A DNA stretch of 52,975 bases from Escherichia phage phiEcoM-GJ1: sequence record NC_010106.1; one strand, given 5' to 3'. This document shows, piece after piece, positions 2,639 through 42,002 of the stretch. Below the pieces are notes generated by a model. The model saw only the letters and a list, made by a program, of their open reading frames with translations. It was not told the origin of the DNA and ran no database searches. Every line of letters starts with the position of its first letter. The stretch's first letter is position 1. Both the position numbers and the translations under genes were made by a program.

Positions 2639-2659
2639 GCATTAGTTGTTAATGAATTA
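2639..2659 (+). promoter_or_regulatory. copy of conserved ~20-bp motif (candidate phage-RNAP promoter), degenerate
   Basis: GCATTAGTTGTTAATGAAT, 40 bp upstream of the 2681 ORF; shares ATTAGTTG core. Confidence 0.35.
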
Positions 2660-2680
2660 AATCAAATTGGAGACTTTATA

Positions 2681-2848
2681 ATGTTCACAGTAACCTTAGT
2701 AACCTATTACGGTAAGCAAGTGTGTAAGAAGTTTGAGACTTTAGCAGAAGCAAGAGCCTTTGCAGCACGTGAAGAGAATATCTATGTAGAGTGTGAAATC
2801 ACAGATGGTGATAAAGTCTACGATGTAGTTAAGCCTGAACTCCACTGA
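2681..2848 (+). CDS. hypothetical small protein (55 aa)
   Basis: ORF MFTVTLVTYYGKQVCKKF... with GGAGACTT RBS identical in form to the RNAP RBS; below the ORF-track size cut-off. Confidence 0.5.
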   Translation: MFTVTLVTYYGKQVCKKFETLAEARAFAAREENIYVECEITDGDKVYDVVKPELH

Positions 2849-2860
2849 TTCCTAATATTC

Positions 2861-2889
2861 GGACAATATTGTTGCATGTAATATTGTCC
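2861..2889. repeat. perfect 10-bp inverted repeat GGACAATATT-N9-AATATTGTCC
   Basis: Arms 2861-2870 and 2880-2889 flank GTTGCATGT; lies just upstream of a motif copy. Confidence 0.6.
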
Positions 2890-3849
2890 CGATATTCGAC
2901 ATTAGTTGGATGTGAAGTAACAGAATACGGAGAAGTATTACTCACGTTGTTCGTGGGTTTCCGCATGTCATGTTGAAATCATTCTAGAAACATTTCAGCA
3001 TGTCAACTAAACACACAGCGTTGTAATGATGTGGCAATCATTGAACTCCCTGTCTTTGGCCGGACAAAGTTCCAGCAACCATGTGTGAAGTAGGATTATC
3101 ATTCGAAACTGTTCTTCCGGTGTTGAACTAACAACAGAACATCGTGTTAGCCATCTTGATTAAGTTACAAGAAAGTCAACAAACCTAAGCATGTTCACTT
3201 GTTTCAATATTGCTCCATCTCCTATTATCAAGGCCCACCCACAAGCCGGGAGATAACTTTGGCAAGACTGGAACTTTTGGACATGCTTCTTTCTTTCAAT
3301 CAGAATTCGAAAGAAGAGAAGAGTCGGAGCAAAGCCGCGAAACTAATCCCGTAGCCCGCCCCGATTTTGAGCAACAAATATTGTGACAATTGCGTCGCAG
3401 TATGGCATGTAAATATTGCTACAAATTGGCATGTTGGAATGTGGCAGAATTGTTAGAGGACTAATCACCTCGAAGATACAATCGTCTACCAATCTGGCAT
3501 GTTAATTTTGTAACAGTATTTGTGCCAATTTCGCATGTAATAAATGTATCAATATTCACCCAATATTCTTGCAACCCGCATGAATACTGGCTTCCAGCCA
3601 AGCGAAGGCTTTATCATCGCATGTAATATTGTGACAATATTGGGATAAAACCCCTTTATTTATTTCTGTAGTTTTGTATTAAATGGACGGTTTTCCGTAC
3701 CTGTTGCGCCACTTCTTGATGTGCCAAATACATTCCAAGATAGGAGCAAACCTGTAATTAATGATGCATGTTTAATTGTGACAAAATTCGTCTATTTGGC
3801 AGATGAGTTAGTTGCAATTAAGCATGTTCATTTATCATTAGTTGCATGT
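2874..3849. repeat. array of about 12 GCATGT-containing degenerate direct repeats in a ~1.1-kb ORF-free region
   Basis: GCATGT at 2874, 2963, 2998, 3189, 3405, 3429, 3497, 3533, 3619, 3766, 3822, 3844, mostly followed by A/T-rich (T)AAT(A/T)TTGT; second palindrome AATATTGTGACAATATT at 3625-3641. Confidence 0.55.
2899..2919 (+). promoter_or_regulatory. conserved motif ACATTAGTTGGATGTGAAG (candidate phage-RNAP promoter)
   Basis: Near-consensus copy; core ATTAGTTGGATGTGA. Confidence 0.45.
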
Positions 3850-3855
3850 GAATAA
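3835..3855 (+). promoter_or_regulatory. conserved motif copy ATTAGTTGCATGTGAATAAG
   Basis: About 190 bp upstream of the first small early gene at 4046. Confidence 0.45.
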
Positions 3856-4045
3856 GACCAAATCTCTGTAAATTCTGCTGAAATTGTGTGACAGATTTTA
3901 GAGAGATTATGTCTCCAAGCTAATCATTGTAGTTTTTCGGCACTTGCTGTGTCACATACTCCCTGCAACTTTAAGGTGGATTAAGGTAATACAAGACCTC
4001 CACAATCGTTCTGTAGGGAGTTTTCTTTTAACTTTGGAGAATAAA

Positions 4046-4294
4046 ATGGATACTGTGATTAAAGCTGCTTACTTCAAAGACCTGCCAGATGGACAAATCT
4101 TTACTGTTCGTTCTGTGAAGTGGATTAAAGTAAATGAGTCAGATAAGTACAATGCCGTAAAGTTCTTTGATTCAAGTAAGGCATGTACTTTTAGCGACAA
4201 TATTGTTGTCAATATTGAAGTCGAATTAGAGCCAGATGATTCAAATGATGAAATCATCCTGCGTAAAACTGTTGGATACACCAAAGGATTCTGA
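4046..4294 (+). CDS. hypothetical protein
   Basis: ORF with GGAG RBS before the internal ATG (MDTVIKAAYF...); the track ORF 3944..4294 probably over-extends 5'. Confidence 0.5.
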   Translation: MDTVIKAAYFKDLPDGQIFTVRSVKWIKVNESDKYNAVKFFDSSKACTFSDNIVVNIEVELEPDDSNDEIILRKTVGYTKGF

Positions 4295-4295
4295 A

Positions 4296-4526
4296 ATGAA
4301 TTATGCACTGTATCATTATATAAGCAGGACTGGACTTGTTCGTCATGCTTTGGTCAACATTAAAACTAAAGATGTGATGTTGGCCGATATGTCAATTTAT
4401 GGAAACAACTTAGTGTGGAAGCGTGCTGCAAATCCTAGTCATGTTTGGCTTGTAATCCAGTCTGACAAATATCACAAAATTGTTGCAATGGCTAATCGCC
4501 CAGAGCACATCGTACCGAGGAAATAA
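4296..4526 (+). CDS. hypothetical protein
   Basis: ORF MNYALYHYISRTGLV...; tightly packed with neighbours; start chosen at internal ATG. Confidence 0.45.
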   Translation: MNYALYHYISRTGLVRHALVNIKTKDVMLADMSIYGNNLVWKRAANPSHVWLVIQSDKYHKIVAMANRPEHIVPRK

Positions 4527-4528
4527 TC

Positions 4529-4717
4529 ATGGACTTCATCGTCTACTTTAAGTTAAATGGTGTAGAGCAAAGATTGTACTTCAATTCTTTACTTCGTTTG
4601 CAACAGTGGGCGGAGAAGTTTGTTGGGTATGACTTTGAATACATCAACGCATGTACACCTGACGAACATGAGGAAATCGTGTTCAGTGGATTAAATCAAA
4701 TTCTGGAGGCAAAATGA
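4529..4717 (+). CDS. hypothetical protein
   Basis: 62-aa ORF with GAGGAAA RBS. Confidence 0.5.
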   Translation: MDFIVYFKLNGVEQRLYFNSLLRLQQWAEKFVGYDFEYINACTPDEHEEIVFSGLNQILEAK

Positions 4718-4874
4718 AGCTCAAATATATGACCAAAACGGTTACATATATGGCTATGTATGGTGCTTCAAAGCGTAAGGCTAAGAAATTAGCAAGAGCT
4801 GCAAATCCTCGCATGCCAGCACGTAAAGTGGCCAAAGTTATCAACTCTGTATTTGGTATCTGGAGTATAAAATG
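4714..4874 (+). CDS. hypothetical small basic protein (53 aa)
   Basis: MKLKYMTKTV...; GGAGG RBS; overlaps neighbours by 4 and 3 nt. Confidence 0.45.
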
Positions 4875-5045
4875 AACGACCAACAATTCAACACATTCAT
4901 GCAGCAGATTAATCATCAAGAACTGATGGAAGCTATCAAAGGCAAGAAGCCAGTCGAACGTAAATATCGTAAAATTGATAATTATATGCCAACAATCATT
5001 GCATGTGTTGGTGTTGCTATTGTTCTATACTTCCTGGTGAAATAA
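4872..5045 (+). CDS. hypothetical small membrane protein (57 aa)
   Basis: MNDQQFNTFMQQ...TIIACVGVAIVLYFLVK has a hydrophobic C-terminal helix; a 28-aa hydrophobic peptide ORF follows at 5045-5131. Confidence 0.4.
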   Translation: MNDQQFNTFMQQINHQELMEAIKGKKPVERKYRKIDNYMPTIIACVGVAIVLYFLVK

Positions 5046-5140
5046 TGTCGATTGTTAAGAAATTAGTATTCTGCATTCTAATGTTCCCTCTGGTGCTGCT
5101 CGTTGTGGGCAGCTTCATGTACTTAAACTAAGGTAATCAA

Positions 5141-5440
5141 ATGCCATCTTTACTTGAATTCTCGAATGTAGCAAATGTTGCTAAAAATTCTATTCCGAAA
5201 AATCCAGATGTAATTGCATACATGCGTGTTGATGTAAGTCTGTTGGCCTTTGTAATGGACCACATCAACCGTGTCGAAGCGCAGTTGTCTGAGTCTTACG
5301 AAACAGTTGACACTCTTCGTGGACTTCGTAGTGCGGAACAAAGCGCTTATGATGAACTGATGGAGCAAAAGAACAAGCTCCAGGAACAGTTGGCAGATGC
5401 ACTTCAACAAATTGAAGAGCTGACACCAGCATCTAAATAA
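5141..5440 (+). CDS. hypothetical protein, predicted coiled coil
   Basis: 99-aa ORF with AAGG RBS; heptad-like C-terminal region. Confidence 0.55.
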   Translation: MPSLLEFSNVANVAKNSIPKNPDVIAYMRVDVSLLAFVMDHINRVEAQLSESYETVDTLRGLRSAEQSAYDELMEQKNKLQEQLADALQQIEELTPASK

Positions 5441-5454
5441 ACTTAGGAGTTATT

Positions 5455-5718
5455 ATGGCTACCAAAACAGGCATGATGATTGTCCCAAGCCGTAATAACT
5501 CTTTAAGCGGCTTTACACCGTATCGCATCTATCGTGTACTCTCAGGGACTGGCGAAGCGAATCTTTCAGAAGTTGCTTTGAAGCTAGGCAGGATGGTCCA
5601 CTCCGACATTTCCTGTAACGTTATCGACGACGAAGGTAAAATCCGTTTTGTAACAATGGACTTCTTCCGTGAATTTAAATTAGAATCTGAATTAGGAGTT
5701 TTGTACCATGAAATTTAA
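5455..5718 (+). CDS. hypothetical protein
   Basis: 87-aa ORF with AGGAG RBS. Confidence 0.55.
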   Translation: MATKTGMMIVPSRNNSLSGFTPYRIYRVLSGTGEANLSEVALKLGRMVHSDISCNVIDDEGKIRFVTMDFFREFKLESELGVLYHEI

Positions 5719-5935
5719 ATGTGTTGCTTCCAACAAAGACTACGTTCCAGTTGGCCTAATCATTGAGGGTGAAGCTGTTTCACCTTTGGAATTTAAAGTT
5801 ACCAAATCTGCTGAGAGCATTTCTCCAGCATTTCGTAAAGGTGCTGTCGTTCCTATGAATGGTGCATTCTGGACATGGCAGCGTGACCATCGAGCAGAGT
5901 TTGCAGATATTTGTGAACAAGGTGTACTTCAATAA
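5708..5935 (+). CDS. hypothetical protein, paralog A of a tandem pair
   Basis: MKFKCVASNK...WTW; GGAG RBS; shares KFKCV and WTW with the next ORF. Confidence 0.55.
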   Translation: MKFKCVASNKDYVPVGLIIEGEAVSPLEFKVTKSAESISPAFRKGAVVPMNGAFWTWQRDHRAEFADICEQGVLQ

Positions 5936-6141
5936 TGGCTAAATTTAAATGTGTAAAATCAAAATCCTATGGAGATTGCTCTCCTAAAGTTGGTGACGTG
6001 ATTGAGGGGAAACTCAAACATGGCCGAATCTTAATTTCGAAGGACAGTGACCGTAAGAATGTGCTTGGAAACCCATATTGGGTTGATGGAGAAAACACTC
6101 TTCTAAAAGGTAATGTCTGGACTTGGGAAGAAGTTAAATAA
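5935..6141 (+). CDS. hypothetical protein, paralog B of a tandem pair
   Basis: MAKFKCVKSK...VWTWEEVK. Confidence 0.55.
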   Translation: MAKFKCVKSKSYGDCSPKVGDVIEGKLKHGRILISKDSDRKNVLGNPYWVDGENTLLKGNVWTWEEVK

Positions 6142-6147
6142 TTTCCT

Positions 6148-6174
6148 CAACCACTTTTGTAATGAGAGTGGTTG
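6148..6174 (+). terminator. candidate terminator hairpin
   Basis: 8-bp stem CAACCACT/AGTGGTTG with 11-nt loop directly after the stop at 6141. Confidence 0.4.
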
Positions 6175-6204
6175 CTGAATATTATTAATTAACTTGGAGC
6201 ATTT

Positions 6205-6495: not shown

Positions 6496-6508
6496 GAATT
6501 ATATAGAA

Positions 6509-7005: not shown

Positions 7006-7045
7006 ATTAACAAGGAGCATTCATTGAGTGTTCCTGATTAATTCA

Positions 7046-7066
7046 ACATTAGTTGGATGTGAGAGA
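7046..7066 (+). promoter_or_regulatory. conserved motif ACATTAGTTGGATGTGAGAG (candidate phage-RNAP promoter)
   Basis: 88 bp upstream of the 7136 gene. Confidence 0.45.
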
Positions 7067-7135
7067 CAAAGCTATTCCGTGGTTAGCAATGTCACTGAAA
7101 CTTAAACCGTAAATTAACTTAAGAGAATCTTAATC

Positions 7136-7516
7136 ATGGCACAATATTCAGACGTAAACACTGGCATCATCGGTTCCAATGGCTTCAAGAAAGACCCAAA
7201 ACATCCTGACGTTCGTGGACGTATTAACGTTGACGGAATCTGGTATTGGGTGTCTGGTTGGAACAAGCAAGCCAATGGTAATGAATTTACCTCGCTGGCA
7301 CTCACCATCATGACTCAAGAACAAGTTGATGAAATGATGCGTAAGCGTGAAGAGAAAGCTAAAGCCAAAGCTCAACCTCAAGCCGCCGCACAACAGCAAC
7401 GTCAGCAACCTTCTGCTGCACAGCAACAGCAAGCACCTACTCAACAGCAAGCTCCGCAGTCGTCTGGGTATAACCCAAATGAGCCGCAGGACTTTGACTC
7501 AGACATACCTTTCTAA
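7136..7516 (+). CDS. small protein with Q/A-rich linker and SSB-like C-terminal tip DFDSDIPF
   Basis: 126-aa ORF; the last 8 residues match the conserved acidic tail ending in IPF of bacterial SSB (E. coli SSB ends DFDDDIPF); the N-terminal ~70 aa are Trp-rich (IWYWVSGW). Confidence 0.6.
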   Translation: MAQYSDVNTGIIGSNGFKKDPKHPDVRGRINVDGIWYWVSGWNKQANGNEFTSLALTIMTQEQVDEMMRKREEKAKAKAQPQAAAQQQRQQPSAAQQQQAPTQQQAPQSSGYNPNEPQDFDSDIPF

Positions 7517-7637: not shown

Positions 7638-8328
7638 CATGGCAAATAGATTTGTTGAAATACCTGCCAATTTGGTCAAACCTGGTGATGTATTGGTTTA
7701 CGGCAACAGAGAATACCGGATTGAAAACATCCTACGGTTTAGTGATGCAGTTCAGTTGCAATATTCTGGTGGGTACTACAATTTTGAATTTGGCCGCATA
7801 GTCAAAGTGCTCGACAGGCCACCAGCTTTGGAAACTCCAACAGCAACATTCAACACACAGATAACACCAGTATTTCTTCCTTACGGGGAAGCAGTGAAAC
7901 CATTCTCAGATGAAGAGGATGTTAAAGGTGCTGATGTGGAAGTTGGCGATGTTATCTGGTTTAAGGGTAATTGGGCAACTGTTACAAATGTGTACAAGCA
8001 TCCAAATTCGCCATACAATAAAGTCAATATTGACCATGATGGTGTAAAAGGTTTGCAAGTGCGCCTGACATTAACTGGAACTTATTCGAGAAAGGTAAGA
8101 GCAGTAATGGAAACATTAAATATTCAAAATGCAATCGAAGCACAACGTATTCTTCTGCAAAAGCTGGAGCAAATGTTGGAATTAACCCAGCTTGCACCAA
8201 CAGGAGATGGCAAGATTGCAATTGGCAACTGTAACATTCGCGTGGACAAGGCATCAATCACTAAAGCCGCACGCGATGAAATGAAAGCTGCCGCAAGCAA
8301 ATCCGCAGAGCTTATCAAGAAGCTGTAA
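7638..8328 (+). CDS. hypothetical protein
   Basis: Long ORF; start chosen at ATG 7638 (MANRFVEI...) after GAGG. Confidence 0.55.
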
Positions 8329-9631: not shown

Positions 9632-9651
9632 CTTCATCAATGGAGCATCCG

Positions 9652-10429: not shown

Positions 10430-10497
10430 TTCCAGGCGGTTTCTTCGAAGTGCCAAGCGGGTTTTGTACTCGCATTGGCCTTCGGCTTTAGTCTGAA

Positions 10498-10518
10498 ACA
10501 TTAGTGGGATTTGATTCT
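10498..10518 (+). promoter_or_regulatory. conserved motif copy ACATTAGTGGGATTTGATT (variant)
   Basis: Shares the upstream TCTGAAAC with the copies at 10639 and 13124. Confidence 0.35.
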
Positions 10519-10638
10519 GACCTCTTAGGGAAGAAAGGCATTATACACTTATCGCCAAATGGGTGTCAAGCACTTTCTTCATTTATTTTAATTTATTCTT
10601 ATTATTCTTTTTGTTTGGAATATTGGAATAATTCTGAA

Positions 10639-10659
10639 ACATTAGTTGGAATTGAAGAA
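10639..10659 (+). promoter_or_regulatory. conserved motif copy ACATTAGTTGGAATTGAAG
   Basis: Second copy in the same ORF-free 600-bp interval. Confidence 0.4.
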
Positions 10660-12131: not shown

Positions 12132-12418
12132 ACTTACAAGACAAATCGAAAGAAGAGTTGATTGAGATTATCCAGAAAGAGCATGAACTCGCTGGCATCA
12201 CAATTAACTTTGAACTCCAGGCAATGCAAGCTGTTGCTTTGGGTCATGGCCTAATGGCTACACTCATTCATGCCAAGAATGTGTTAGGCGTTAACGACGA
12301 AAAATACCAAATTCTGGAGAAAGCTGCGCAAGAGCGGATTTCGCAGTGCTTGGTGACATTAGTTGATTTGGGAATCGACGCAGAAACTGCAAACAAACGT
12401 ATCCTACAAGGCCACTAA
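12128..12418 (+). CDS. hypothetical protein
   Basis: TTG start after GGAG, overlapping the upstream stop (TTGA); alternative ATG start at 12092. Confidence 0.4.
   Translation: MNLQDKSKEELIEIIQKEHELAGITINFELQAMQAVALGHGLMATLIHAKNVLGVNDEKYQILEKAAQERISQCLVTLVDLGIDAETANKRILQGH
12356..12376 (+). promoter_or_regulatory. conserved motif copy ACATTAGTTGATTTGGGAAT (variant, inside a coding region)
   Basis: About 45 bp upstream of the 12420 start codon. Confidence 0.3.
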
Positions 12419-13094: not shown

Positions 13095-13123
13095 GTCGTT
13101 TGACGAATCAGAGCAGTTCTGAA

Positions 13124-13144
13124 ACATTAGTTGGATGTGGAAAG
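13124..13144 (+). promoter_or_regulatory. conserved motif ACATTAGTTGGATGTGGAAAG (candidate phage-RNAP promoter)
   Basis: 93 bp upstream of the codon-optimised 13219 gene. Confidence 0.45.
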
Positions 13145-13218: not shown

Positions 13219-13557
13219 ATGGCTAAGATTGTAACCGTAACTCAGTACGAAGCTAACGATGGTTCCCTGTTCCTGACCGAAGCAGAATGTAATGCGCATG
13301 ACTTCAAACTGGAAAACGGTGCTAAAATTGAGAAAGCTGCCGAAGCGTACCTGAACACCGTTGGCGCTATCGACCGTTCTCGCTCCATGCAGAAGAACAC
13401 CATCGAGCAGTTCCTGGCATTCTACCTGCCGTGGGTTGAAGCTGGTGAGCCGGAAGTTGAGCGTACTAAGTTCGATACTCCGAAAGAAGCTAAAGTTGCT
13501 GACGCAAGTGTTGCCGAAGCTGCCGAAGCTGCTGTTGAAGAAGCTCCGGTATTCTAA
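13219..13557 (+). CDS. hypothetical abundant protein with acidic/Ala-rich C-terminus ending in F
   Basis: 112-aa ORF, AAGG RBS; CTG/CCG/CGT-rich codon usage resembling host highly expressed genes; ends ...AEAAVEEAPVF. Confidence 0.65.
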   Translation: MAKIVTVTQYEANDGSLFLTEAECNAHDFKLENGAKIEKAAEAYLNTVGAIDRSRSMQKNTIEQFLAFYLPWVEAGEPEVERTKFDTPKEAKVADASVAEAAEAAVEEAPVF

Positions 13558-14455: not shown

Positions 14456-14550
14456 GGACGAGTAGCTCAGAAGGTTTGCATTGTGCTCAGTCAGGTAGAG
14501 CAATCTGTTCGACAGATGTGTCGTTGGTTCGAATCCAACCTTGTCCGCCA
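14456..14550 (+). tRNA. tRNA-like element, non-canonical (possible degenerate or interrupted tRNA)
   Basis: Acceptor stem GGACGAG/CTTGTCC (one G-U), T-arm GTTGG-TTCGAAT-CCAAC, discriminator G plus CCA; TAGCTCAG and TCAGGTAGAGC D-arm halves are separated by a 20-nt insertion that duplicates GCTCAG; the anticodon-arm region forms a hairpin with only a 5-nt loop, so no anticodon can be assigned. Confidence 0.35.
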
Positions 14551-17429: not shown

Positions 17430-19192
17430 TGAATATTAAACAATGCGTCGCGAAGATAAAGCACGATGTACCTGGTTGTAAATCTACGTCTGGAAAATCT
17501 TTGCAAGTTTGGGTTAATACAGACGAATCTGGAAACACATCATATTCTGGATTTTGCTTTGCATGTGGTGTTCTTGTTCCAAATCCATATGGAACAGATG
17601 CAGAGAAGTTTCCCGAAGTCCATATCAAGACGCCAGAAGAGATTCAGGCAGAGGTGGATGAAATAACATCTTGCCCTCCACTTGATTTGGACCACAGAGG
17701 CATAGAGCCTGAGTTTTGGAAGGCTGCTGGTGTGAGGCTGTTGTATTCTGAATACGACGGGAAAACGCCCAACGCATTGGCTCACGGGTATACCAAGAAT
17801 GGTAAACTTGTACGTTGGAAAATCAAATTACTAAATAAGAAGGTTATGTGGTCAGTTGGGGATACTCAAGATAATGACCCATATAACTTTATGGCTGCGA
17901 AGGCCATTGGAGGTAAGACATTATTCATTACCGAAGGTGAAGAAGATTGTATTGCTCTCCGTCAAATCCTTAAAACAATGAATCGTGGCAGTGCTTATGA
18001 AGACCTCGACTTTGCTGTTATTAGCTTAAGTGATGGCAGTAGCTCTGTGCATAAATGCCTTTCTCGTGTTGCAGAAGAAATCAAGCAACGTTGGGAGCAG
18101 GTTGTTATCGTATTTGATGACGATGAACCTGGACGTAAAGCTGCCAAAGAAGCGTGTCGATTGTTGCCTGGTGCAATGATTGCAACACTTCCAGCTAACG
18201 ATGCTAACGATTGTTTGAAGCGTGGCTTGCTCAAAGCTACTCAATCTGCTGTTGTGTTCCGTGCTGCCCGTCCTCTTCCTACAGCACTTGTCAACAAAGA
18301 ACTTCTTATGGAAGAGCTTGATGATGAGGTTGAGCAGGGTGTGGATTATCCTTGGCCCAAGTTAACCGACTTAATGTTTGGTCAACGTCGAGCCGAAGTT
18401 ATTACAATCGGTGGTGCAGAAGGTGGTGGTAAAACTACCTTGTCCCGTCAGATTGTGCATCACAACATTACCAAGCACGATTGGGGAGTGTTTACTGCAT
18501 ACATGGAGGAAACTCCTACAGAAACACTGCGCCGAATGGCTGGCCTTAATGACAACTTGCCATATTGGGAACCTGCGTTTACTCGTGAAGACCCTCGATA
18601 TGATGAAGCTAAGTTCCGTCAAACTGCTGCGAAGATGCTTCGTAACATGGAGATTTGGGACCGCAAGCAAGCTGGAGAAGACCCTTATGAAACCTGGGAT
18701 GGGTTAAAGACGATTCTTCGTCAGATTGGACCAGACATTGATATGTTTGTCCTTGATAACTTAACCTACTTATCGGAAGGGATTTCTGCCTCAGAGAAGA
18801 ACGACTTCTTAGGTAAGCTGTATGCAGATATTACTAAGCTGGCAGACCAATACCAGTTCCATGTGAATATCTTGTCGCACCTCAACCCTGTGGCAAAAGG
18901 TCAGCGACCTCATGAAGATGGCGGACGAATCAAGAAGTCAGACTTTACTGGCTCTCGTGCTGCTGCTAAATATTCTCATGGTATGTTTGGCTTTGAGCGT
19001 AATAGCCAGGCAGTTGACCCAAACTGTTCTATTATTCGTTCCATCAAAGCTCGTAAGAGTGGTAAAACAGAAGGCTTCAAGACGTATTATGACACCGAAT
19101 CTGGTCGAATTATTCAACGTTCTTGGGATGACTCTCTGTTCGAAACTAAAGAGATTGTTCAACTTACTAAGAAGAACGGTCCACACCAATAA
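17429..19192 (+). CDS. DNA primase/helicase (T7 gp4-like)
   Basis: N-terminal Cys cluster (CFACG), TOPRIM motifs FITEGEEDCIAL and IVFDDDEPGRKAA, Walker A GGAEGGGKTT, Walker B-like MFVLDNL. Confidence 0.9.
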   Translation: MNIKQCVAKIKHDVPGCKSTSGKSLQVWVNTDESGNTSYSGFCFACGVLVPNPYGTDAEKFPEVHIKTPEEIQAEVDEITSCPPLDLDHRGIEPEFWKAAGVRLLYSEYDGKTPNALAHGYTKNGKLVRWKIKLLNKKVMWSVGDTQDNDPYNFMAAKAIGGKTLFITEGEEDCIALRQILKTMNRGSAYEDLDFAVISLSDGSSSVHKCLSRVAEEIKQRWEQVVIVFDDDEPGRKAAKEACRLLPGAMIATLPANDANDCLKRGLLKATQSAVVFRAARPLPTALVNKELLMEELDDEVEQGVDYPWPKLTDLMFGQRRAEVITIGGAEGGGKTTLSRQIVHHNITKHDWGVFTAYMEETPTETLRRMAGLNDNLPYWEPAFTREDPRYDEAKFRQTAAKMLRNMEIWDRKQAGEDPYETWDGLKTILRQIGPDIDMFVLDNLTYLSEGISASEKNDFLGKLYADITKLADQYQFHVNILSHLNPVAKGQRPHEDGGRIKKSDFTGSRAAAKYSHGMFGFERNSQAVDPNCSIIRSIKARKSGKTEGFKTYYDTESGRIIQRSWDDSLFETKEIVQLTKKNGPHQ

Positions 19193-19253
19193 CAGAGCTG
19201 CTACGCTGCATGGTTCGCCCACCAGCGTGGCCCTCGTCAACATGGATTAAGTA

Positions 19254-19739
19254 ATGTCCGATGAACAAAAGATTTCTCTGTGGCGAAGTATGTTTTCCTA
19301 CACAGAGGATGGTAAACTTTACAGGAAGATGGAGTCCGGCAAGTTGAAACTTGTTGGTAGCCCTTGTGGACGAGATAAACTCTATCTTAATGTGCGTGTC
19401 GGGAAGTCATTCGAGTACGTGCACCGGATTATCTTTGGGATGCACTATGGATTCTTGCCAAAGCAAGTTGACCATAAGGTGGGATTTGATAACTCACCAA
19501 GCAATCTTCGTGCGGCAGACAACCAACAGAACAATTGCAACGTTGTCAGAAAACTTGGCGCAGTGCCTTTCAGAGGCGTATCCAGAATGAAGAATGGTAC
19601 GTTTGTAGCCAGGATAAGAAACGGAAATTCGAGGATATACATTGGGACTTTCCCAACTGCCAAACAGGCTGCTTTAGCATACAACGAATTTGCAATAAAA
19701 CTCCACGGAGAGTTTGCGATAATCAATAGGAACATATAA
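19254..19739 (+). CDS. HNH-AP2 homing endonuclease (copy 2 of 3)
   Basis: HRIIFGMHYGFLPKQVDHKVGFDNSPSNLR ... GVSRMKNGTFVARIRNG; inserted between primase-helicase and DNA polymerase. Confidence 0.8.
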   Translation: MSDEQKISLWRSMFSYTEDGKLYRKMESGKLKLVGSPCGRDKLYLNVRVGKSFEYVHRIIFGMHYGFLPKQVDHKVGFDNSPSNLRAADNQQNNCNVVRKLGAVPFRGVSRMKNGTFVARIRNGNSRIYIGTFPTAKQAALAYNEFAIKLHGEFAIINRNI

Positions 19740-21673
19740 TGCTCTATCCTTGGGAAAATATGTATGCCAGTGACATTGAAACAACTGGCCTGTTGGAGCA
19801 AATGCGCAAGCAAGCTGCACCACGTCTTCACAACATCGGATATATTGATGTTCTGACTCGTGAAGAAACTGTAATAGAGTGGACCGACAGAAAGTCTATC
19901 CAGGCATTTCTGGATACAGGCCCAACATTAATCATGCACAACGGCGCAACCTTTGACTTTGAGGCACTGAGGTTCCTGGGCTACGACGTTTCAAAATGTA
20001 CACTAATTGATACTTTGTTTATCAGTTGGTATCTGCAACCTCGTCGTGTTAAGCACGGCTTAGAAGGTTACGGCGAAGAGTTTGGTGTGCCAAAACCAGT
20101 CATTGAAGATTGGGAAAATCAAACTCAAGAAGAGTACAACCATCGTGTGATGGAAGACTGCAAGATTCAGTTGAAGCTGTGGGAACAGCAATACATTCAA
20201 CTCTTGAAGATTTATAAATCTCCTAGCGAAGTTAAACGCTTCGTTGAATACCTGATGACAAAAGCTCGTCAACAAGTTATTCAACAACGTACTCGCTGGA
20301 AGCTGAACATTGAGAAGGCATTGGCATTTAAGGCCAAGCTGGAACCAATGATTAAAGAGAAGACCGACGCATTGGAAGCATCAATGCCGCGTATTCCAGA
20401 ATATGTAATCAAGACCCGTCCAGCCAAATGCCACAAAATGAACGGACAATTGTCTGCCACTGGTATTAAGTGGAAAGCTGTTTGTGATGCAAACGGTTTA
20501 GACTGGAAAGACCCAGACTTAGCTATCAAAGTCCTGAAGGGTTATAAGGAACCAAACGCTGGTTCTCACGTACAGATTAAAGATTGGCTGTTTAGCTTAG
20601 GCTGGGAGCCAGAAACATTTAAGTTTGACCGCAATAAGGAAACAGGTGAGACTCGCCAGATTCCTCAAATCACTGTGAAGGATGAAGATGGCAATCCTGA
20701 AATATGTCCAAGCCTCCATAAGTTGGCAGAAAGAAACCCCGAATCTGGTATTCAACATCTTATTGGGATGGGCGTGTATAAACACCGTCTCTCTGTTGTT
20801 AATGGTTTTCTTCGCGACGTCGATGAAGACGGATACCTTACTGCACGATGCGGTGGCCTTACCAATACTTTACGCCTTAAACACCGCGAACTTGTTAACC
20901 TCCCTTCTATTCGTGTATTTGGCGGTGAAGAACTTCGTTCAATGCTGGAAGCGTGGCGCGAAGACTACGAACAGTTAGGTTCTGACTTGTGTTCCCTGGA
21001 AGACCGTTGTAAGCACCACTTCCAATGGATGTATGACCCTGAATACGTTAAGAAGCAGTTGGCACCAGACTATGATGCTCACCTTGCAATCGGCGTAATT
21101 GGTGGATTTATTACCGAACAGGAATCTCAGGACCACAAGGACGGAATTAAGAAGTGTAAACAACGTCCAATGTTTAAGACCACAAACTATGCTTGTCAGT
21201 ATGGTGCTGGTGTACCAACTGTAGCTCGTTCTGCGGGCTGTGACCAGACTACTGCTGCACGACTGCATAAAGCATATTGGGACTTGAACTGGTCTATCAA
21301 AGAGATTGCTGCGAACACCAAAGTTATCACAGTTGATGGTCAGATGTGGCAACAGAATCCAGTAAACAAGTTCTGGTATTCGTTGCGTACAGAGAAAGAC
21401 CGCTTCTCCACATTGTGTCAGGGCACTGGTGCATATGTGTTTGATATTTGGTGTAACAACATCATTGCAATTTGTAATGAACGTTGGGGATGTGACCCGC
21501 TTCTGTCTGGACAATTCCACGATGAATTGATTCTCCAGGTTAAGAAAGGCTTCCGAGATTTGTGGACGGACTTACTTAATGAAGCAATGGACCGAACCAA
21601 CAAAGAACTTAAACTCAATCGTGATTGTGCATGTGATGTACAATTTGGCGATAACTACGCAGAGATTCACTAA
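19739..21673 (+). CDS. family A DNA polymerase (T7 gp5-like) with 3'-5' exonuclease domain
   Basis: Exo I motif YASDIETTGL; polymerase motif A-like DLCSLEDR, motif B KTTNYACQYGAG, motif C QFHDELIL. Confidence 0.9.
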   Translation: MLYPWENMYASDIETTGLLEQMRKQAAPRLHNIGYIDVLTREETVIEWTDRKSIQAFLDTGPTLIMHNGATFDFEALRFLGYDVSKCTLIDTLFISWYLQPRRVKHGLEGYGEEFGVPKPVIEDWENQTQEEYNHRVMEDCKIQLKLWEQQYIQLLKIYKSPSEVKRFVEYLMTKARQQVIQQRTRWKLNIEKALAFKAKLEPMIKEKTDALEASMPRIPEYVIKTRPAKCHKMNGQLSATGIKWKAVCDANGLDWKDPDLAIKVLKGYKEPNAGSHVQIKDWLFSLGWEPETFKFDRNKETGETRQIPQITVKDEDGNPEICPSLHKLAERNPESGIQHLIGMGVYKHRLSVVNGFLRDVDEDGYLTARCGGLTNTLRLKHRELVNLPSIRVFGGEELRSMLEAWREDYEQLGSDLCSLEDRCKHHFQWMYDPEYVKKQLAPDYDAHLAIGVIGGFITEQESQDHKDGIKKCKQRPMFKTTNYACQYGAGVPTVARSAGCDQTTAARLHKAYWDLNWSIKEIAANTKVITVDGQMWQQNPVNKFWYSLRTEKDRFSTLCQGTGAYVFDIWCNNIIAICNERWGCDPLLSGQFHDELILQVKKGFRDLWTDLLNEAMDRTNKELKLNRDCACDVQFGDNYAEIH

Positions 21674-21945
21674 TGCAAACTGTATATTCCATCTTTGATA
21701 TGCAAGAGTCAGAGCACCATATGTTTGCCACTGATTCCGAAGTTCCTTCAAAGGACGCTGTAATTGCGTTCCTTGAAAAGATTAAGGACAAAGTTTTCGC
21801 TTCGTCCGACCCACAGTCTCAAGCATTTAACGATGAGACATTTAAAAGCCTCCAAACTTTAATTTCGGCAACGTCTTCATTTGAAGAGCTGTCCGAAGCA
21901 TTAGTTGGATATGACTTCCGACTTGCTATGTTGCAGGTCGACTAA
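21673..21945 (+). CDS. hypothetical protein
   Basis: 90-aa ORF overlapping the polymerase stop (TAATG). Confidence 0.55.
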   Translation: MQTVYSIFDMQESEHHMFATDSEVPSKDAVIAFLEKIKDKVFASSDPQSQAFNDETFKSLQTLISATSSFEELSEALVGYDFRLAMLQVD

Positions 21946-21975: not shown

Positions 21976-22842
21976 ATGGCATTTGCTGCTCCTACACTGG
22001 CCTCGAACAAGACTCCTTCTGCTGCACCATTACTGGAAGCGGGTGGTTATCCTGCTCGTGTTTGCCGTATTATCGACCTGGGCTTACAGCCTGGTTCTGC
22101 TAAATATCCTACTCCTTCCTTGAAACTTCTGGTGACTTTCGAACTGCTCGACGAGTACATGAAAGAAGTTGACAGTGAAGGTAAAATGGTCATGGTTCAA
22201 GACCCAGACGAAGATGACGGCATCATGATGGCGAAGAATCTTGAAGATAAGCCGCGTTGGTTTGACTTTGAGTTTACCTATAATGCTGACGGCTTCATGG
22301 GTGAGAACTCCCACATCTACAAATTCGCCAAGGCGATTGATGCACTGGAAGTTAAACCTAATCTGGAACAAGGTATTCAGGGCCATCCTGCCAAGAACCT
22401 GCCGGATTGGTTGGGCGAACCTCTGATTGTTGGCATTGTTCAATATACCAAGCAGTCCGGCAAGAATGCTGGTCAGGTTGCGAACAAGGTTGCTACCTTC
22501 TCTCCGATGAAGTCCAAAGAGAAGAAAGAAGCTAAAGCTCTGGTGAACCCGACTGTATTCTTCGACATGTCTGAGCCAGACCTGGAAGTATTCAACAAGC
22601 TGCCTGGTGGCGAATCTCCGTATGCAATCAAGAACCGTATTACTTCCGGTGTTGATTTCTACAAGACTAAGCTGTCTGCACTGTTAGGCGGTAAACCTGC
22701 CGATGAAGGTGCTGTACCGAATCAGGCTTCTGATGAAGAAGTTGATGCAGCTATGAAAGCTGAACTGGAAGCACAGGCTGCTGCAAAAGCACAGCGTGAA
22801 GCGGAAGGTGGTGCTGCTGGCGGTACAGGTATGCCGTTCTAA
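21976..22842 (+). CDS. hypothetical abundant protein (possible ssDNA-binding or replisome accessory protein)
   Basis: 288-aa ORF with host-optimal codon usage, followed by a strong terminator; Ala/Gly-rich C-terminus ending GMPF; the function is a guess from context only. Confidence 0.6.
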   Translation: MAFAAPTLASNKTPSAAPLLEAGGYPARVCRIIDLGLQPGSAKYPTPSLKLLVTFELLDEYMKEVDSEGKMVMVQDPDEDDGIMMAKNLEDKPRWFDFEFTYNADGFMGENSHIYKFAKAIDALEVKPNLEQGIQGHPAKNLPDWLGEPLIVGIVQYTKQSGKNAGQVANKVATFSPMKSKEKKEAKALVNPTVFFDMSEPDLEVFNKLPGGESPYAIKNRITSGVDFYKTKLSALLGGKPADEGAVPNQASDEEVDAAMKAELEAQAAAKAQREAEGGAAGGTGMPF

Positions 22843-22852: not shown

Positions 22853-22877
22853 GGCTCCTTCGGGAGCCTTTAATTTT
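22853..22877 (+). terminator. intrinsic terminator
   Basis: GGCTCC-TTCG-GGAGCC hairpin followed by TTTAATTTT. Confidence 0.65.
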
Positions 22878-26762: not shown

Positions 26763-26779
26763 GCGACACGCGTAATTAG

Positions 26780-26805
26780 GGAGGCTATCTGGCCTCCTAT
26801 CTTAT
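26780..26805 (+). terminator. candidate terminator hairpin
   Basis: GGAGGC-TATCTG-GCCTCC followed by TATCTTATT; nested in an outer inverted repeat AAGCGAC...GTCGCTT. Confidence 0.4.
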
Positions 26806-26817: not shown

Positions 26818-27003
26818 ATGCGCACAATACAATGTCCTAACTGCCATTATGAAATTGCAGAAGATGATTTCATAACGCAGCAATGTCCTATCTGTGATTC
26901 ATACATGCCACTAAACCGCCTGTATTTAAAGGCCGATTCTGGTTTAGGCAGCATCATTCGCATCAATCCCGTGCAAACTCAGCCATTAGTGGATTGTGAT
27001 TAA
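26818..27003 (+). CDS. zinc-ribbon small protein
   Basis: CPNCHYEI ... CPICDSYM: two CxxC pairs; 61 aa. Confidence 0.5.
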   Translation: MRTIQCPNCHYEIAEDDFITQQCPICDSYMPLNRLYLKADSGLGSIIRINPVQTQPLVDCD

Positions 27004-32869: not shown

Positions 32870-32924
32870 ATTGTACTGGCGCAATTAATCGTTGCGCCTA
32901 ACCAAACAAAATGGATTAAACTAC

Positions 32925-33939: not shown

Positions 33940-33965
33940 GGCGGGAGAAATCTCGCCTAATTTAA
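33940..33965 (+). terminator. candidate terminator hairpin after capsid gene
   Basis: GGCGGG-AGAAAT-CTCGCC (one G-U) followed by TAATTTAA. Confidence 0.4.
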
Positions 33966-37123: not shown

Positions 37124-37135
37124 GGGGTGCGATAA

Positions 37136-37591: not shown

Positions 37592-37603
37592 TTTGGAGTA
37601 AGT

Positions 37604-38238: not shown

Positions 38239-41200
38239 TCAAAAAGATTTAATGAAGTTGAGCGTTAATGAGTTAATTGCATTAGGCTCTCAAAGCGGTC
38301 TGACTTTCCATGCTGGTATGAAGAAGTCGCACATGGTTCAACAACTTAGTGCGAGCGCTGCTTCGGGATGGCTGGATACAAATGCAGAATTAATGGGTGG
38401 GTCGTTTGAAGATGACAGTTTAATTACTGAATCTCTTGGCGACTCTTCCATGATTTCAGACGCTGCCCACATTGCACAAGTGCTTTCAAGTGCTGGCTAC
38501 ACAGAAGCATTTCATGCAGCAATGAATGGCCCAACACACCATGTAGAAGCTGTTCACGCATACATGGAAAGGCTTGGTGTCAACACAGATGATGTGTGGA
38601 TGCACATGCCAAAGCCAAATCCGAACTTACCGCAAGGTAGCTTCAACATGCTTAATGCGTACATGCGTGATACGCTGGCAGGTCATCAAGATATAATGCC
38701 GGAACTTCCTGGTCATTACACTGGTGACATTATGGGTGAATACTCTACAAACCGTGGAGATATTGCCAAATCTATGGGCTATCTTGCTCATATGTATGTT
38801 GACCGTCAACAATATGACGACCCAGACCGCTATGCACGAGATGTTTATCGTGTAGCCAAACGTTTAGAATCAGAATTGCCGCAAAACTTCCGTGAAGTTG
38901 CTGCTGTATCTGCAATGAATGTAGGTAATAAGTCGGGGCCAAGAGTTTCATACATGGATTCTCTCCCTCAACTTGGTTCCGAATCTATTGTTGGTGATAT
39001 TCAACATCCTCGCCAACCACTTAACGCATCTGGCCTACCTTTAGGCTCTATGGGTTCTGGCATTAAAGCTGAATATTCTTTATCTGCATCATTATCTGGC
39101 TCCCCAGGTTGGTCTGATGCAAGTAAATCTTTATATCAAGATGTATCTGGCGCAGTTAAATCTGCTGCTAAGGTATATGCTGGTGGTTCAGAACGAGGGA
39201 TGAACGCATATCGCACTCAATCTTCTGACCGAGATTTGATTCTTGATTCTGCATCTCGTTATACAGACCTTGCAGATGCTCGTTCTGGTTATGACAACCT
39301 AAAGAAAGATATTGGTGATGACCCTCGTTACTCTGGTGCATCTATTCGTGGCGTACTGGAAAATGCTCACCAATATAATGAAGCTGAAATCAGTAAGACT
39401 TTCGACCCTGCTGAACGTTTAAGAAATACTGGACCTACTGAACTTAGTACATCCAATGAGTTTACGGCAAATCTAAATGAACCGACAAGTTGGAACTCTG
39501 CAAGGGATAGAAGAGAGTCTATTGCTATTGCAAATCTCGATAGTGCTAGCGTTGGACAGCATAGTTCGGTTAAGTACCACGATGCGCTCGAACAAGGTAC
39601 GCAGGAGTGGCTTGATTTTCGTAAGCAGTATGATATTACTGGCTCTACTATTGGTGACTATCTGGGCCACAACCCCGCAACCAATAATAGCCCAATACAT
39701 ACAATGGGCGAAAAGATTGGCCTCACAGTAAGAAAGGATTCCCCACGAGCGCGCGAGAACTTTGAGCGTGGACATAGATTAGAGGCGTGGGCCAGACCCA
39801 GGGTAGGTGAACGATATGGGATTGAAATAACTGAAACTGGTGCAATCACAAACGACGACTATCCTGGCATGATGTACTCGCCTGATGGGCTAATTGGTGA
39901 TGATGCTTTGTGGGAACATAAAGCTCCAAATAACTTTAAAGATTTGGAAACAACTCCAAACTACATGGACCAGATGCAACTTGGTATGCATTTGAGTGGC
40001 CGTAGTCGCACACTGTTTACCCAAACTGTTGGCGAAGAGTCCAGAAGTCAGTGGGTTGAAGCCGACCCAACGTGGTTTGAACGTAACAAGAACAAGATTA
40101 TATCCTCTCAAGCACGCATGAATGCTGGACGCGAGTTTATGGAAAGCTCCGACCTTGAGGGAAAAGACCTTGTTAATGAAACCCGCAAAGTTATGTCTGG
40201 TGATGGAATTTGGGGCTACCAGACTCGTGACCACAGGGAAGGTGAGGGATATACTGCTGGCAAGCGCGGGATGGCTAAATATAGTGCTGCTGCTGGCACT
40301 GCTGCTGACCCGTTTATTGGCTCCCATTCTCCCTACAATCCAGAGGCATCTCGTTCAGGCTACCAACCAAACTTTGTAATGCACGAGCAAAACTTTCCAG
40401 CAACCACAGGAAATGGTGATACTGGAAATGACTCGATGGCATTGTCTGTTAAGAAAGGTATCCTTGCTGCTCAGGAAGAGAATAAGCAAAAGGGTATTGG
40501 TGCAGACGCAGACTTTGATGGCAAAGCTGATTCAATGGGTTGGAATCAGGAACGATTTGATGCTGCCAATGGTGGTGGAAGTGGTGGCGGCGGTGGTCGT
40601 GGCGGCTACTTCACAAGTGGTGGCAACTACTTCGATGACTACGGTCGTATGGGTGGTTCACTTGCTGCTGGCATTGCTGGTGGCAGTATTGGTTCGGCAA
40701 CCAACGGAGTTATGCAAGCATTGATGGCAACTCCTGCCGGACGTATGGCTGCTGTAGGCATTGGTGCTATTCAGATTGGCAATGAAGCTGCTGAATACAT
40801 GAATGACTTTATCGGCAACTCGCTTGATGCTGGTGTTATGAATCCTAATGAATATTCTTCCATGTCGCAAGGCTTGGAGATGTTAGGACTCAACTCACAA
40901 CAAGCGGCACGTATGAATCAAACCACACATAGTGCCTACAACACCATGCTTAACGGCGACCCCAGCGCCGCTGTGAACATCGTTCGCGGCAGTAGGGGAT
41001 TGCTCACCATAGGTGATATTCGCTCGACTGGCGGCGACCCTGTTGCCCTCGCTCGCATTATGCAGGAAAGAGGCAAGGAACGTGGCTGGAGTCAGGCCCG
41101 TATCGCTGGTGCTGCGCAGATGGCTGGGCTGGATGGTATGGCTCGTGCCTTCGACCGCACGGAATACAGCCATGAGCGAGCAGGTTCGGTGGTAGAAAGT

Positions 41201-41950
41201 GGTAGAAACTCTGACTTTGCCGAAGGTATGGCTCAATCAGAAATGTTGCAGGTGGAGCGCGCACAGCTTCTGCCAGGGTATAACGTGCCACAAAGTGTGC
41301 TATCTCATGGTGCTGCACTGTTCGAAGCTGGAAGCACTGCTGCTGGTGCTGCTAACTCTGGATACAGCCAAGCCCGACAAGTTGCTGCAAACGTTTATGA
41401 TTTCATTGCTGGTGAAGAGTCTGGTGGCAAGGAATACAACAAGGATGGTACACGAGTTACAAGCCCGACTGGTGCTCGTGGAATCATGCAGGTTCTTCCT
41501 TCTACTGCTCGTGACCCAGGTTACGGAATCAAACCTTCTGATGGAAGTCCTGAAGATGATGCTCGTGTCGGTCGTGAATACTACGATGCGATGTATAAAC
41601 GATTCGGTGGCGACCATGAGAAAGCAATGGCTGCTTACACGGATGGTGCTGGAACTGTTGACAAGGCTGTCGATAAGTTTGGAATGGATTGGCTCAGTGC
41701 TGTTCCGGCTCAGGCTCAGAAACGTGTTAAAGCATTCCGTGAATGGTCCAAATCTTCTCAATCTTTGGAAGAAGGTGCTACAGGGTTTACTCGCAATGGA
41801 ATGTCCTACGGTCAAACCCAAACTGTTGTCAATGTTAAGATTGATGCTAAGGTCAACAACCAGGTTGCTTCTGCTACAGTTGCAGTTCCTGGTGGCCAGA
41901 CTGTAACTCAACAAATGAACATGAACAACGGTGCACAACAAAGACGTTAA
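38222..41950 (+). CDS. large multidomain virion protein at the tape-measure position: HeH-like N-terminus, lambda-exonuclease/YqaJ-like PD-(D/E)XK nuclease domain, Gly-rich region, lytic transglycosylase (SLT) domain
   Basis: 1242 aa; N-terminal L..L.V.EL..L motif (Rho-N/HeH-like); residues ~440-640 contain QGTQEWLDFR...ITGSTIGDYLG and YSPDGLIGDDALWEHKAP...YMDQMQLGM, matching the lambda exonuclease/YqaJ active-site pattern; GGGSGGGGGRGG tract; C-terminal GEESGG...SPTGARGIMQV...AYTDGAG matches the SLT signature. Confidence 0.7.
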   Translation: MKTMANQKDLMKLSVNELIALGSQSGLTFHAGMKKSHMVQQLSASAASGWLDTNAELMGGSFEDDSLITESLGDSSMISDAAHIAQVLSSAGYTEAFHAAMNGPTHHVEAVHAYMERLGVNTDDVWMHMPKPNPNLPQGSFNMLNAYMRDTLAGHQDIMPELPGHYTGDIMGEYSTNRGDIAKSMGYLAHMYVDRQQYDDPDRYARDVYRVAKRLESELPQNFREVAAVSAMNVGNKSGPRVSYMDSLPQLGSESIVGDIQHPRQPLNASGLPLGSMGSGIKAEYSLSASLSGSPGWSDASKSLYQDVSGAVKSAAKVYAGGSERGMNAYRTQSSDRDLILDSASRYTDLADARSGYDNLKKDIGDDPRYSGASIRGVLENAHQYNEAEISKTFDPAERLRNTGPTELSTSNEFTANLNEPTSWNSARDRRESIAIANLDSASVGQHSSVKYHDALEQGTQEWLDFRKQYDITGSTIGDYLGHNPATNNSPIHTMGEKIGLTVRKDSPRARENFERGHRLEAWARPRVGERYGIEITETGAITNDDYPGMMYSPDGLIGDDALWEHKAPNNFKDLETTPNYMDQMQLGMHLSGRSRTLFTQTVGEESRSQWVEADPTWFERNKNKIISSQARMNAGREFMESSDLEGKDLVNETRKVMSGDGIWGYQTRDHREGEGYTAGKRGMAKYSAAAGTAADPFIGSHSPYNPEASRSGYQPNFVMHEQNFPATTGNGDTGNDSMALSVKKGILAAQEENKQKGIGADADFDGKADSMGWNQERFDAANGGGSGGGGGRGGYFTSGGNYFDDYGRMGGSLAAGIAGGSIGSATNGVMQALMATPAGRMAAVGIGAIQIGNEAAEYMNDFIGNSLDAGVMNPNEYSSMSQGLEMLGLNSQQAARMNQTTHSAYNTMLNGDPSAAVNIVRGSRGLLTIGDIRSTGGDPVALARIMQERGKERGWSQARIAGAAQMAGLDGMARAFDRTEYSHERAGSVVESGRNSDFAEGMAQSEMLQVERAQLLPGYNVPQSVLSHGAALFEAGSTAAGAANSGYSQARQVAANVYDFIAGEESGGKEYNKDGTRVTSPTGARGIMQVLPSTARDPGYGIKPSDGSPEDDARVGREYYDAMYKRFGGDHEKAMAAYTDGAGTVDKAVDKFGMDWLSAVPAQAQKRVKAFREWSKSSQSLEEGATGFTRNGMSYGQTQTVVNVKIDAKVNNQVASATVAVPGGQTVTQQMNMNNGAQQRR

Positions 41951-41955
41951 CGAGT

Positions 41956-41980
41956 TGGGGAGAAATCCCCAGCTTACTTT
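41956..41980 (+). terminator. intrinsic terminator after the tape-measure-position gene
   Basis: TGGGGA-GAAA-TCCCCA hairpin followed by GCTTACTTT. Confidence 0.55.
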
Positions 41981-41981
41981 A

Positions 41982-42002
41982 ACATTAGTTGAATATGTAT
42001 TA
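41982..42002 (+). promoter_or_regulatory. conserved motif copy AACATTAGTTGAATATGTA
   Basis: Only copy in the late region; 40 bp upstream of the first baseplate gene, directly after a terminator. Confidence 0.4.

Follow-up and report, generated by a model that had tools for sequence, protein, structure and literature searches.

Escherichia phage phiEcoM-GJ1 (GJ1; sequence record NC_010106.1) is a myovirus of the Chaseviridae, and the 52,975-bp window analyzed here appears to be its complete genome. The genome carries a repeated, asymmetric 23-bp element with the core ATTAGTTG, which we consider likely to be the promoter recognized by the T7-like single-subunit RNA polymerase (RNAP) that the phage itself encodes as gp01. 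We base this assignment on the enrichment and strand bias of the element, the contiguous block of information that it forms, its placement between genes, its conservation at syntenic positions, and a polymerase for which a T7-type fold is predicted with confidence. A first-pass annotation of the window had put forward nine copies of the motif as candidate promoters for the phage RNAP, and the strand bias, the syntenic intergenic conservation and the fold of the polymerase all lend indirect support to that proposal.

Copies of the motif in the GJ1 genome

The genome has a G+C content of 44%, and every sizeable open reading frame (ORF) is located on the + strand; the genes are all co-oriented and closely packed. 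Each copy of the motif is named by the coordinate of the A of ATTAGTTG; the positions given in the first-pass annotation sit 2 nt upstream of that A. Scores are those of the weight matrix described below, and +1 is the predicted start of transcription. The nine robust copies are:

573 (567..589), + strand: 82 nt upstream of the start codon of the RNAP gene; 32.6 bits, 27.4 bits leave-one-out; predicted +1 G586.
2641 (2635..2657), + strand: after the RNAP gene and 40 nt before a 55-aa ORF; a weaker copy, 17.5 bits leave-one-out; predicted +1 G2654.
2901 (2895..2917), + strand: perfect consensus (0 mismatches), opening a 1.1-kb noncoding stretch; predicted +1 G2914.
3837 (3831..3853), + strand: ahead of a cluster of small early genes; predicted +1 G3850.
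7048 (7042..7064), + strand: 88 nt upstream of the gene (7136-7516) for the single-stranded-DNA-binding protein (SSB); predicted +1 G7061.
10500 (10494..10516), + strand: core ATTAGTGG, within the noncoding stretch that follows the anti-restriction gene; predicted +1 G10513.
10641 (10635..10657), + strand: another copy within that noncoding stretch; predicted +1 G10654.
13126 (13120..13142), + strand: the strongest copy, 35.7 bits, 93 nt upstream of a 112-aa ORF (13219-13557); predicted +1 G13139.
41984 (41978..42000), + strand: between the tape-measure and baseplate-hub genes; 31.9 bits; predicted +1 G41997.

On a greedy map of + strand ORFs these nine strong copies fall in gaps or in short, probably spurious ORFs. 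For six of them the start codon of the next credible ORF follows at a distance of 39-107 nt. The earlier statement that the copies lie mostly 40-200 bp upstream of gene starts holds for six of the nine copies in the first-pass list, and fails for 2901, 10500 and 10641. Two copies directly follow GC-rich hairpins, that before 2641 (2609-2630) being terminator-like and that before 41984 occupying 41955-41972.

Every copy in the first-pass list is present, the A of ATTAGTTG being found at 2641, 2901, 3837, 7048, 10500 (as ATTAGTGG), 10641, 12358, 13126 and 41984. The list nevertheless missed the strong copy at 573, and included that at 12358, which is intragenic and doubtful (see below). The extended upstream sequence TCTGAAAC is indeed common to three copies, 10500, 10641 and 13126. 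The reported skew towards the first 13 kb is also real and is conserved among relatives, with 8/9 robust intergenic sites within the first 13.2 kb (9/10 if the doubtful 12358 is counted) and 41984 alone beyond; this is the only robust copy in the late region.

Copy 573 has two peculiarities of its own. It overlaps a weak TTGTAA-17-GATATT sequence (545-589 region), and it alone has T in place of C before ATTAG, giving a better -10-like hexamer.

Statistical significance and anatomy of the motif

All 13 occurrences of the core ATTAGTTG are on the + strand, with 0 on the - strand; 2.24 would be expected on both strands together, and a count of 13 was reached in 0/100 shuffles. The earlier observation that all copies are on the + strand therefore extends to 13/13 core copies. 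A 19-mer consensus allowing up to 3 mismatches gives 6 matches against 0.02 expected. A genome-wide weight-matrix search, which the first-pass annotation had put forward as a check, points the same way. The 26-nt matrix was built from ten seed copies, which score 24-36 bits, or 15-33 bits leave-one-out, while 200 dinucleotide shuffles gave a mean of 0.34 matches of at least 15 bits, and 0.01 of at least 24 bits, per genome on both strands. The nine intergenic copies score 27-36 bits. That the copies are functionless look-alikes, arising by chance or driven by coding, does describe the matches at 12358, 12794, 16740 and 21900, which are lost in relatives where the codons differ. Applied to the nine intergenic copies it is barely credible, being refuted by their bit scores and by their syntenic conservation between genes.

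An information profile computed from 44 sites in five non-redundant genomes reveals one contiguous, asymmetric block of 23 bp, extending from -6 to +16 around the A of ATTAGTTG. The consensus is T-K-n-R-A-C-ATTAGTTG-R-A-W-G-T-G-A-A. Counting from that A, the invariant bases are T at +1, T at +2, A at +3 and G at +7; the G at +4 (42/44 sites) and T at +5 (43/44) are nearly so. Further downstream there is a G at +13 in 43/44 sites and at +11 in 30/44. The information values inside the block are partly inflated, because the sites were picked with a matrix spanning -8 to +17, and are unbiased outside it. Positions upstream of the block carry no more than 0.5 bit each, and there is no second element at a fixed distance; a TTG-containing element is located 15-22 nt upstream of several copies, with variable spacing.

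These features bear on whether the motif might be part of a host sigma-70 promoter, in which a TTG element 15-20 nt upstream would serve as the -35 and nACATT as a weak -10. Several copies do have TTGnnn upstream, as in TTGACG-17-AACATT (13126), TTGGAA-17-AACATT (10641) and TTGTAA-17-GATATT (573). Yet over the 44 sites there is no -35 signal at a fixed distance (at most 0.5 bit, with the spacing ranging over 15-22 nt), and the near-invariant ATTAGTTG...G reaches well past any -10, unlike TATAAT. No match in a sigma-70 consensus scan coincides with a copy of the motif, and such matches are rarer than in shuffled sequence. Moreover, Gammaproteobacteria share a stable sigma-70 consensus, but the motif drifts along with the phage lineage. 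We consider this reading very improbable, and reject it on spacing and information content.

The motif could alternatively act at the level of RNA, as a processing or stability signal or a translational element in 5′ leaders. It is strand-specific and stands upstream of start codons, and conserved hairpins resembling processing or stability elements flank the capsid gene. Against this, it is the primary sequence that is conserved, over 23 nt and without conserved pairing; the ACAT/ATGT complementarity within the motif is broken in many copies. The distance to the start codon ranges from 39 nt to more than 1000 nt, and several copies come directly after terminator-like hairpins, where a new start would be needed. 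A role in the RNA is therefore highly improbable.

Conservation and drift across the Chaseviridae

By megablast GJ1 matches Chaseviridae myoviruses of Escherichia and Yersinia at ~90% identity, and phages of Erwinia, Pectobacterium and Proteus, among others, at lower levels. Table 1 of the PP101 paper (Front Microbiol 2020, PMC6989608) lists phiEcoM-GJ1 as NC_010106. The sizes given for GJ1 products in the ST32 paper (gp01 648 aa, gp02 55 aa, gp15 126 aa and gp29 112 aa) match ORFs at 655-2601, 2681-2848, 7136-7516 and 13219-13557, respectively. We compared GJ1 with ST32, 4HA13, PP101, Y2 and PA_03, the RNAPs of which are 93, 76, 71, 71 and 67% identical to that of GJ1. In these genomes a weight-matrix scan returns seven shared slots for the motif, always on the + strand:

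Slots 1-3: before the RNAP gene; just after the RNAP gene; before the early-gene cluster.
Slots 4-5: before the SSB gene; in the noncoding stretch after the anti-restriction gene.
Slots 6-7: ahead of the conserved 112-aa ORF; between the tape-measure gene and that for the baseplate hub.

Across five genera both flanks of each slot have diverged in sequence while the motif has been kept. The slot of copy 573 is preserved in ST32, 4HA13, PP101, Y2 and PA_03, and those of 2901 and 13126 likewise in 5/5 relatives, the former with a conserved leader sequence downstream. The slot of 7048, upstream of the SSB gene, is kept in 4HA13, PP101, Y2 and PA_03; in ST32 the copy at this slot precedes an inserted gene, gp18, which in turn precedes the SSB gene. 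Counterparts of copy 10500 are found in ST32 (12161) and 4HA13 (10323). The arrangement of hairpin and motif at 41984 is maintained in ST32, 4HA13, PP101 and Y2, and more weakly in PA_03. In PP101 the copies at syntenic slots are at 357, 2472, 7104, 12144, 14254 and 42397.

Some variants of the motif recur at several sites of a single genome; PA_03 has TTGAGTGTG and Y2 has CTTTAGTTG. In a metagenomic relative whose RNAP is 54% identical, G/C-TTAGTTGG stands both before and after the RNAP gene, and at 40% and 34% RNAP identity the motif is no longer detected. Such drift is consistent with co-evolution between the sites and a reader encoded by the phage. The copy at 7679 in ST32, ahead of the inserted gp18 that is absent from GJ1, bears the TTGAGTGTG variant typical of the Proteus phage PA_03, as if the inserted cassette had brought its own promoter variant.

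The phage RNA polymerase

The presumed reader of the motif is the product of the following gene:

RNAP gene (gp01, 648 aa), 655..2601, + strand: match to Pfam RNA_pol (PF00940), E 1.7e-16.

An AlphaFold model of gp01, calculated from an alignment of 49 homologues at 35-84% identity, has a pLDDT of 91 and a pTM of 0.84. Its best fold matches in the PDB are T7 RNAP complexes (E 9e-19, TM ~0.6, 14% identity), followed by mitochondrial RNAPs. A single-sequence search of gp01 against solved structures gave no match, and a six-sequence profile only a weak match to T7. Profile alignment superimposes GJ1 561-610 on T7 791-840, containing motif C (IHDCF compared with IHDSF), and GJ1 200-253 on T7 403-454. 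By the same register the T7 specificity loop (739-770) corresponds to GJ1 ~509-540, and the model has a segment rich in β-strand there (506-539). The strands of this presumed specificity loop, SIRVDSxTRVIFG and KPWxIRE, are invariant across genera, and its tip is variable. Invariant strands match an invariant motif core, and we count this in favor of the promoter assignment. Residues 1 to ~152 of gp01 correspond to T7 1 to ~316, so that the N-terminal domain is about half the size of that of T7.

The existence of this enzyme also bears on a different interpretation, in which the motif is the site of a phage DNA-binding regulator, or of a factor that redirects the host RNAP. Nothing specific points to this, and the function of most early genes is not known. 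The motif is asymmetric and strictly confined to one strand, unlike typical dimeric operators, and no conserved core promoter is adjacent to it. A regulator site would furthermore leave the dedicated promoter-specific polymerase of the genome without a candidate promoter. We regard the idea as improbable.

A number of side observations concern the polymerase and its homologues. An invariant basic loop of gp01, R136-K150 (RRKPFVKGGKVKPSK), is a candidate DNA-contacting element. RNAP homologues with 36-51% identity are found on large bacterial contigs of Hafnia alvei (4.8 Mb), Enterobacter ludwigii, Lelliottia and Pseudomonas brenneri (6.3 Mb), which suggests integrated elements carrying this type of polymerase. 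L007, a metagenomic Chaseviridae-like contig with an RNAP that is 54% identical, has at 18330-19304 a gene with weak matches to Phage_integrase; an integrase-like gene is unexpected here, as the Chaseviridae are described as strictly lytic. A further sequence, PP952070.1, deposited as 'Staphylococcus phage Pel53' (host Staphylococcus hyicus), is ~89% identical to GJ1 in DNA and 95% in RNAP, and its host label looks doubtful.

A proposed scheme of transcription

From these comparisons we infer how the enzyme might bind the motif, where RNA would start and in what order events would occur. The RNAP gene would be read first, by the host RNAP, from left-end signals of sigma-70 type. The candidate is TTGACG-18-TATTAT at 364-393; of the sigma-70-like matches on the + strand within the first 15 kb, it is the best. 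This site is overlapped by three tandem 26-nt repeats (286, 333 and 359) upstream of the RNAP gene.

The T7 specificity loop reads its promoter at -12 to -8 (structural entry 1CEZ). If +1 is set at the G of +13 in the motif, present in 43/44 sites, then TTAGT, the most conserved run, falls at -12 to -8, and would make the corresponding contacts. The other candidate start, at +11, has a G in only 30/44 sites. On this basis gp01 would bind the 23-bp duplex, with the hairpin of its specificity loop reading the near-invariant TTAGT in the major groove, and would melt the A/T-rich ATGT tract just upstream of the start. RNA would then begin with GTP at the G 13 nt downstream of the A of ATTAGTTG, giving transcripts with the 5′ sequence GAA(G/U), and the enzyme would proceed rightward through the co-oriented genes. 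The nine intergenic copies would thus head transcription units comprising the RNAP gene, the early cluster, the SSB gene with replication-associated genes, two noncoding leaders and the baseplate/tail-fibre block. The copy before the RNAP gene itself might provide positive feedback.

Several considerations weigh against the assignment of the motif as the gp01 promoter. The strongest promoters of T7 serve its late genes, and the layout in GJ1 is unlike that, with a single robust copy in the 39 kb that lie downstream of 13.2 kb, and no copy ahead of the major capsid gene. Three copies, 2901, 10500 and 10641, are followed by long leaders lacking ORFs, of about 1040, 530 and 390 nt. T7-like binding geometry is an assumption, given the half-size N-terminal domain. 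Relatives with RNAPs of 40% (L008) and 34% (Vibrio phage VPs20) identity have no matches to the matrix, and simple de novo motif searches of these two genomes returned only A/T-rich words and no convincing promoter; with no counterpart motif in the most distant relatives, co-variation of motif and enzyme is only partly demonstrated. Our literature search found no transcriptomic or biochemical study of any member of the Chaseviridae, and the ICTV profile of the family states that promoters 'have not yet been identified'.

Relation to known systems and earlier predictions

Promoters of this kind are expected for a phage that encodes a T7-like RNAP, and their prediction for this phage group is already known in the literature, so that the prediction itself is not new. 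A 2008 paper on GJ1 reportedly named nine putative phage promoters. The PP101 paper (PMC6989608) independently hypothesized eight consensus 'phage RNA-polymerase-specific' promoters through that genome. We infer that these are the same as the GJ1 motif from our weight-matrix scan of PP101, and not from the published logo; the RNAPs are homologous and the motif occurs at syntenic slots. A literature search with the string ATTAGTTGG returned only unrelated papers, and two recent papers on mining promoters of single-subunit RNAPs do not cover the Chaseviridae.

In its design the motif resembles the class II/III promoters of T7 (and those of T3, SP6 and K11; Autographiviridae). Each is a contiguous asymmetric element of ~23 bp that points in the direction of the genes; the GJ1 element, too, would be recognized by a single-subunit polymerase that the phage encodes and that has the T7 fold. 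With +1 placed at the invariant G, the most conserved bases of the GJ1 motif would likewise lie at -12 to -8, followed by an A/T-rich tract and an initiating G. The two genomes further share terminator-like hairpins followed by a new promoter, and an RNAP gene placed behind host-type signals at the left end. The sequences themselves are nevertheless unrelated (ACATTAGTTGGATGT-GAAG in GJ1 compared with TAATACGACTCACTATA-GGGAGA in T7), and the GJ1 enzyme has 648 aa compared with 883, with about half of the N-terminal domain and 14% identity in structural alignment. Unlike those of T7, the GJ1 promoters crowd into the first quarter of the 53-kb genome of a myovirus; none stands ahead of the capsid gene, and one copy is directly upstream of the RNAP gene.

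The Xanthomonas phage Xp10 offers another comparison. This is a siphovirus with a T7-like RNAP that combines host and phage polymerases, in which the phage RNAP gene is mid-genome and serves the late genes. GJ1 is similarly a long-tailed phage with a T7-type RNAP, yet in GJ1 the RNAP gene comes first and the promoters cluster in the early and middle region. RNAPs of the Xp10 group are ~22-24% identical to that of GJ1.

If the assignment is correct, it would supply the promoter for the RNAP of the Chaseviridae that is still missing from the ICTV profile. It would also provide a compact pair of polymerase and promoter unrelated in sequence to those of T7, T3 and SP6, and so a possible orthogonal system for expression or in vitro transcription.

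Transcription of the late genes

The uneven spread of the promoters raises the question of how late expression is timed and boosted in a myovirus whose enzyme is of the T7 type. The first-pass annotation had suggested that late genes use another mechanism, and our analysis does not support this. Sigma-70-like sites are not enriched anywhere in the genome, the late-region counts being 26 and 22 compared with shuffle means of 32.9 and 29.0. Inspection, which was not exhaustive, of the gaps before the terminase, capsid and replication modules revealed no second conserved intergenic motif, and the motif at 41984 is the sole conserved promoter-like element seen in the late region. Because the genes are co-oriented and tightly packed, and single-subunit RNAPs are processive, read-through from upstream promoters, with processing or attenuation at hairpins, is at least as plausible as a separate late mechanism.

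GC-rich hairpins of the late region that could take part are:

22853-22868: after ORF 21976-22842; 4HA13 has an annotated terminator at the equivalent place (22645-22666).
26779-26797: before the small ORF ahead of terminase.
32878-32898: immediately before the major capsid gene.
33940-33957: immediately after the major capsid gene.

The last three are conserved in the relatives compared. These hairpins look like terminator, attenuator or RNA-stability elements, and could shape the late transcripts.

A broader departure from T7 may be imagined for the Chaseviridae. A minimal RNAP would use promoters within the first 13 kb, and the ~29 kb from the replication to the tape-measure genes, including capsid, would be expressed by long read-through shaped by hairpins or from a second class of promoter. 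Copies 2901, 10500 and 10641 would then serve replication priming or terminal-repeat processing and not gene expression. The phi1.1A/B and phiOR promoters of T7 are thought to have such functions, and the noncoding stretches at 2901, 10500 and 10641 are rich in repeats. We hold this scheme to be possible, though rather unlikely.

Intragenic look-alikes

Other matches fall inside coding sequence:

12358 (12352..12374), + strand: within the 3′-terminal part of a gene; the lowest-scoring of the copies, 15.1 bits leave-one-out; doubtful.
16740: look-alike inside a called ORF; 16.8 bits.
21900 (21894..21916), + strand: within the 3′-terminal part of ORF 21673-21945, with the next gene following after 76 nt; 24.6 bits; a possible weak internal copy.
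26985 (26979..27001), + strand: at the end of a small ORF, which in relatives stands ahead of the terminase gene; 17.1 bits; a possible weak copy.
9292, 12794 and 31448, + strand: bare 8-mers inside called ORFs.

The match at 12358 encodes Thr-Leu-Val-Asp-Leu-Gly, and at the DNA level it has gone in PP101 and PA_03, where residues or codons differ. That at 21900 encodes A-L-V-G-Y-D; it is kept only in Escherichia phages and lost in PP101, Y2 and PA_03. Since the DNA match vanishes where the residues or codons of the relatives differ, we treat both as doubtful, and on this codon-level comparison reject them as conserved promoters. The look-alikes at 12358, 12794, 16740 and 21900 encode (A/T)-Leu-(Val/Ile)-Gly/Asp via GCA/ACA TTA GTT GG, a recurrent source of false positives.

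The case of 26985 is different. In GJ1 an HNH endonuclease ORF intervenes between the small ORF and the terminase gene. ATTAGTnG is kept in ST32, 4HA13 and PA_03, and absent in PP101 and Y2. Because it is retained in three genera while the encoded C-terminus changes, 26985 may be a genuine, if weak, site preceding the packaging genes.

The repeat-rich noncoding stretch and other features

The 1.1-kb noncoding stretch at 2848-3944 contains 12 of the 20 + strand copies of GCATGT in the genome. The repeat units approximate to GCATGTwwwtATTGTnACAATATTG, and there is a perfect 17-nt palindrome, AATATTGTGACAATATT, at 3625-3641. Base composition gives no mark of an origin near the noncoding stretches. 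Similar GCATGT units are present in PA_03, 4HA13 and one metagenomic relative, and in 4HA13 an annotated direct terminal repeat of 3120 bp ends inside the equivalent stretch. Possible roles for the repeats are as an origin, as a boundary element for packaging or for the terminal repeat, or as a regulator array.

An Rfam scan of the genome matched tRNA as the sole RNA family. The 95-nt tRNA at 14456-14550 is called tRNA-Leu (anticodon CAG) by ARAGORN, Rfam agreeing that it is a tRNA. The ST32 paper names the 99%-identical gene tRNA-Arg; a length of 95 nt suits a tRNA with a long variable arm.

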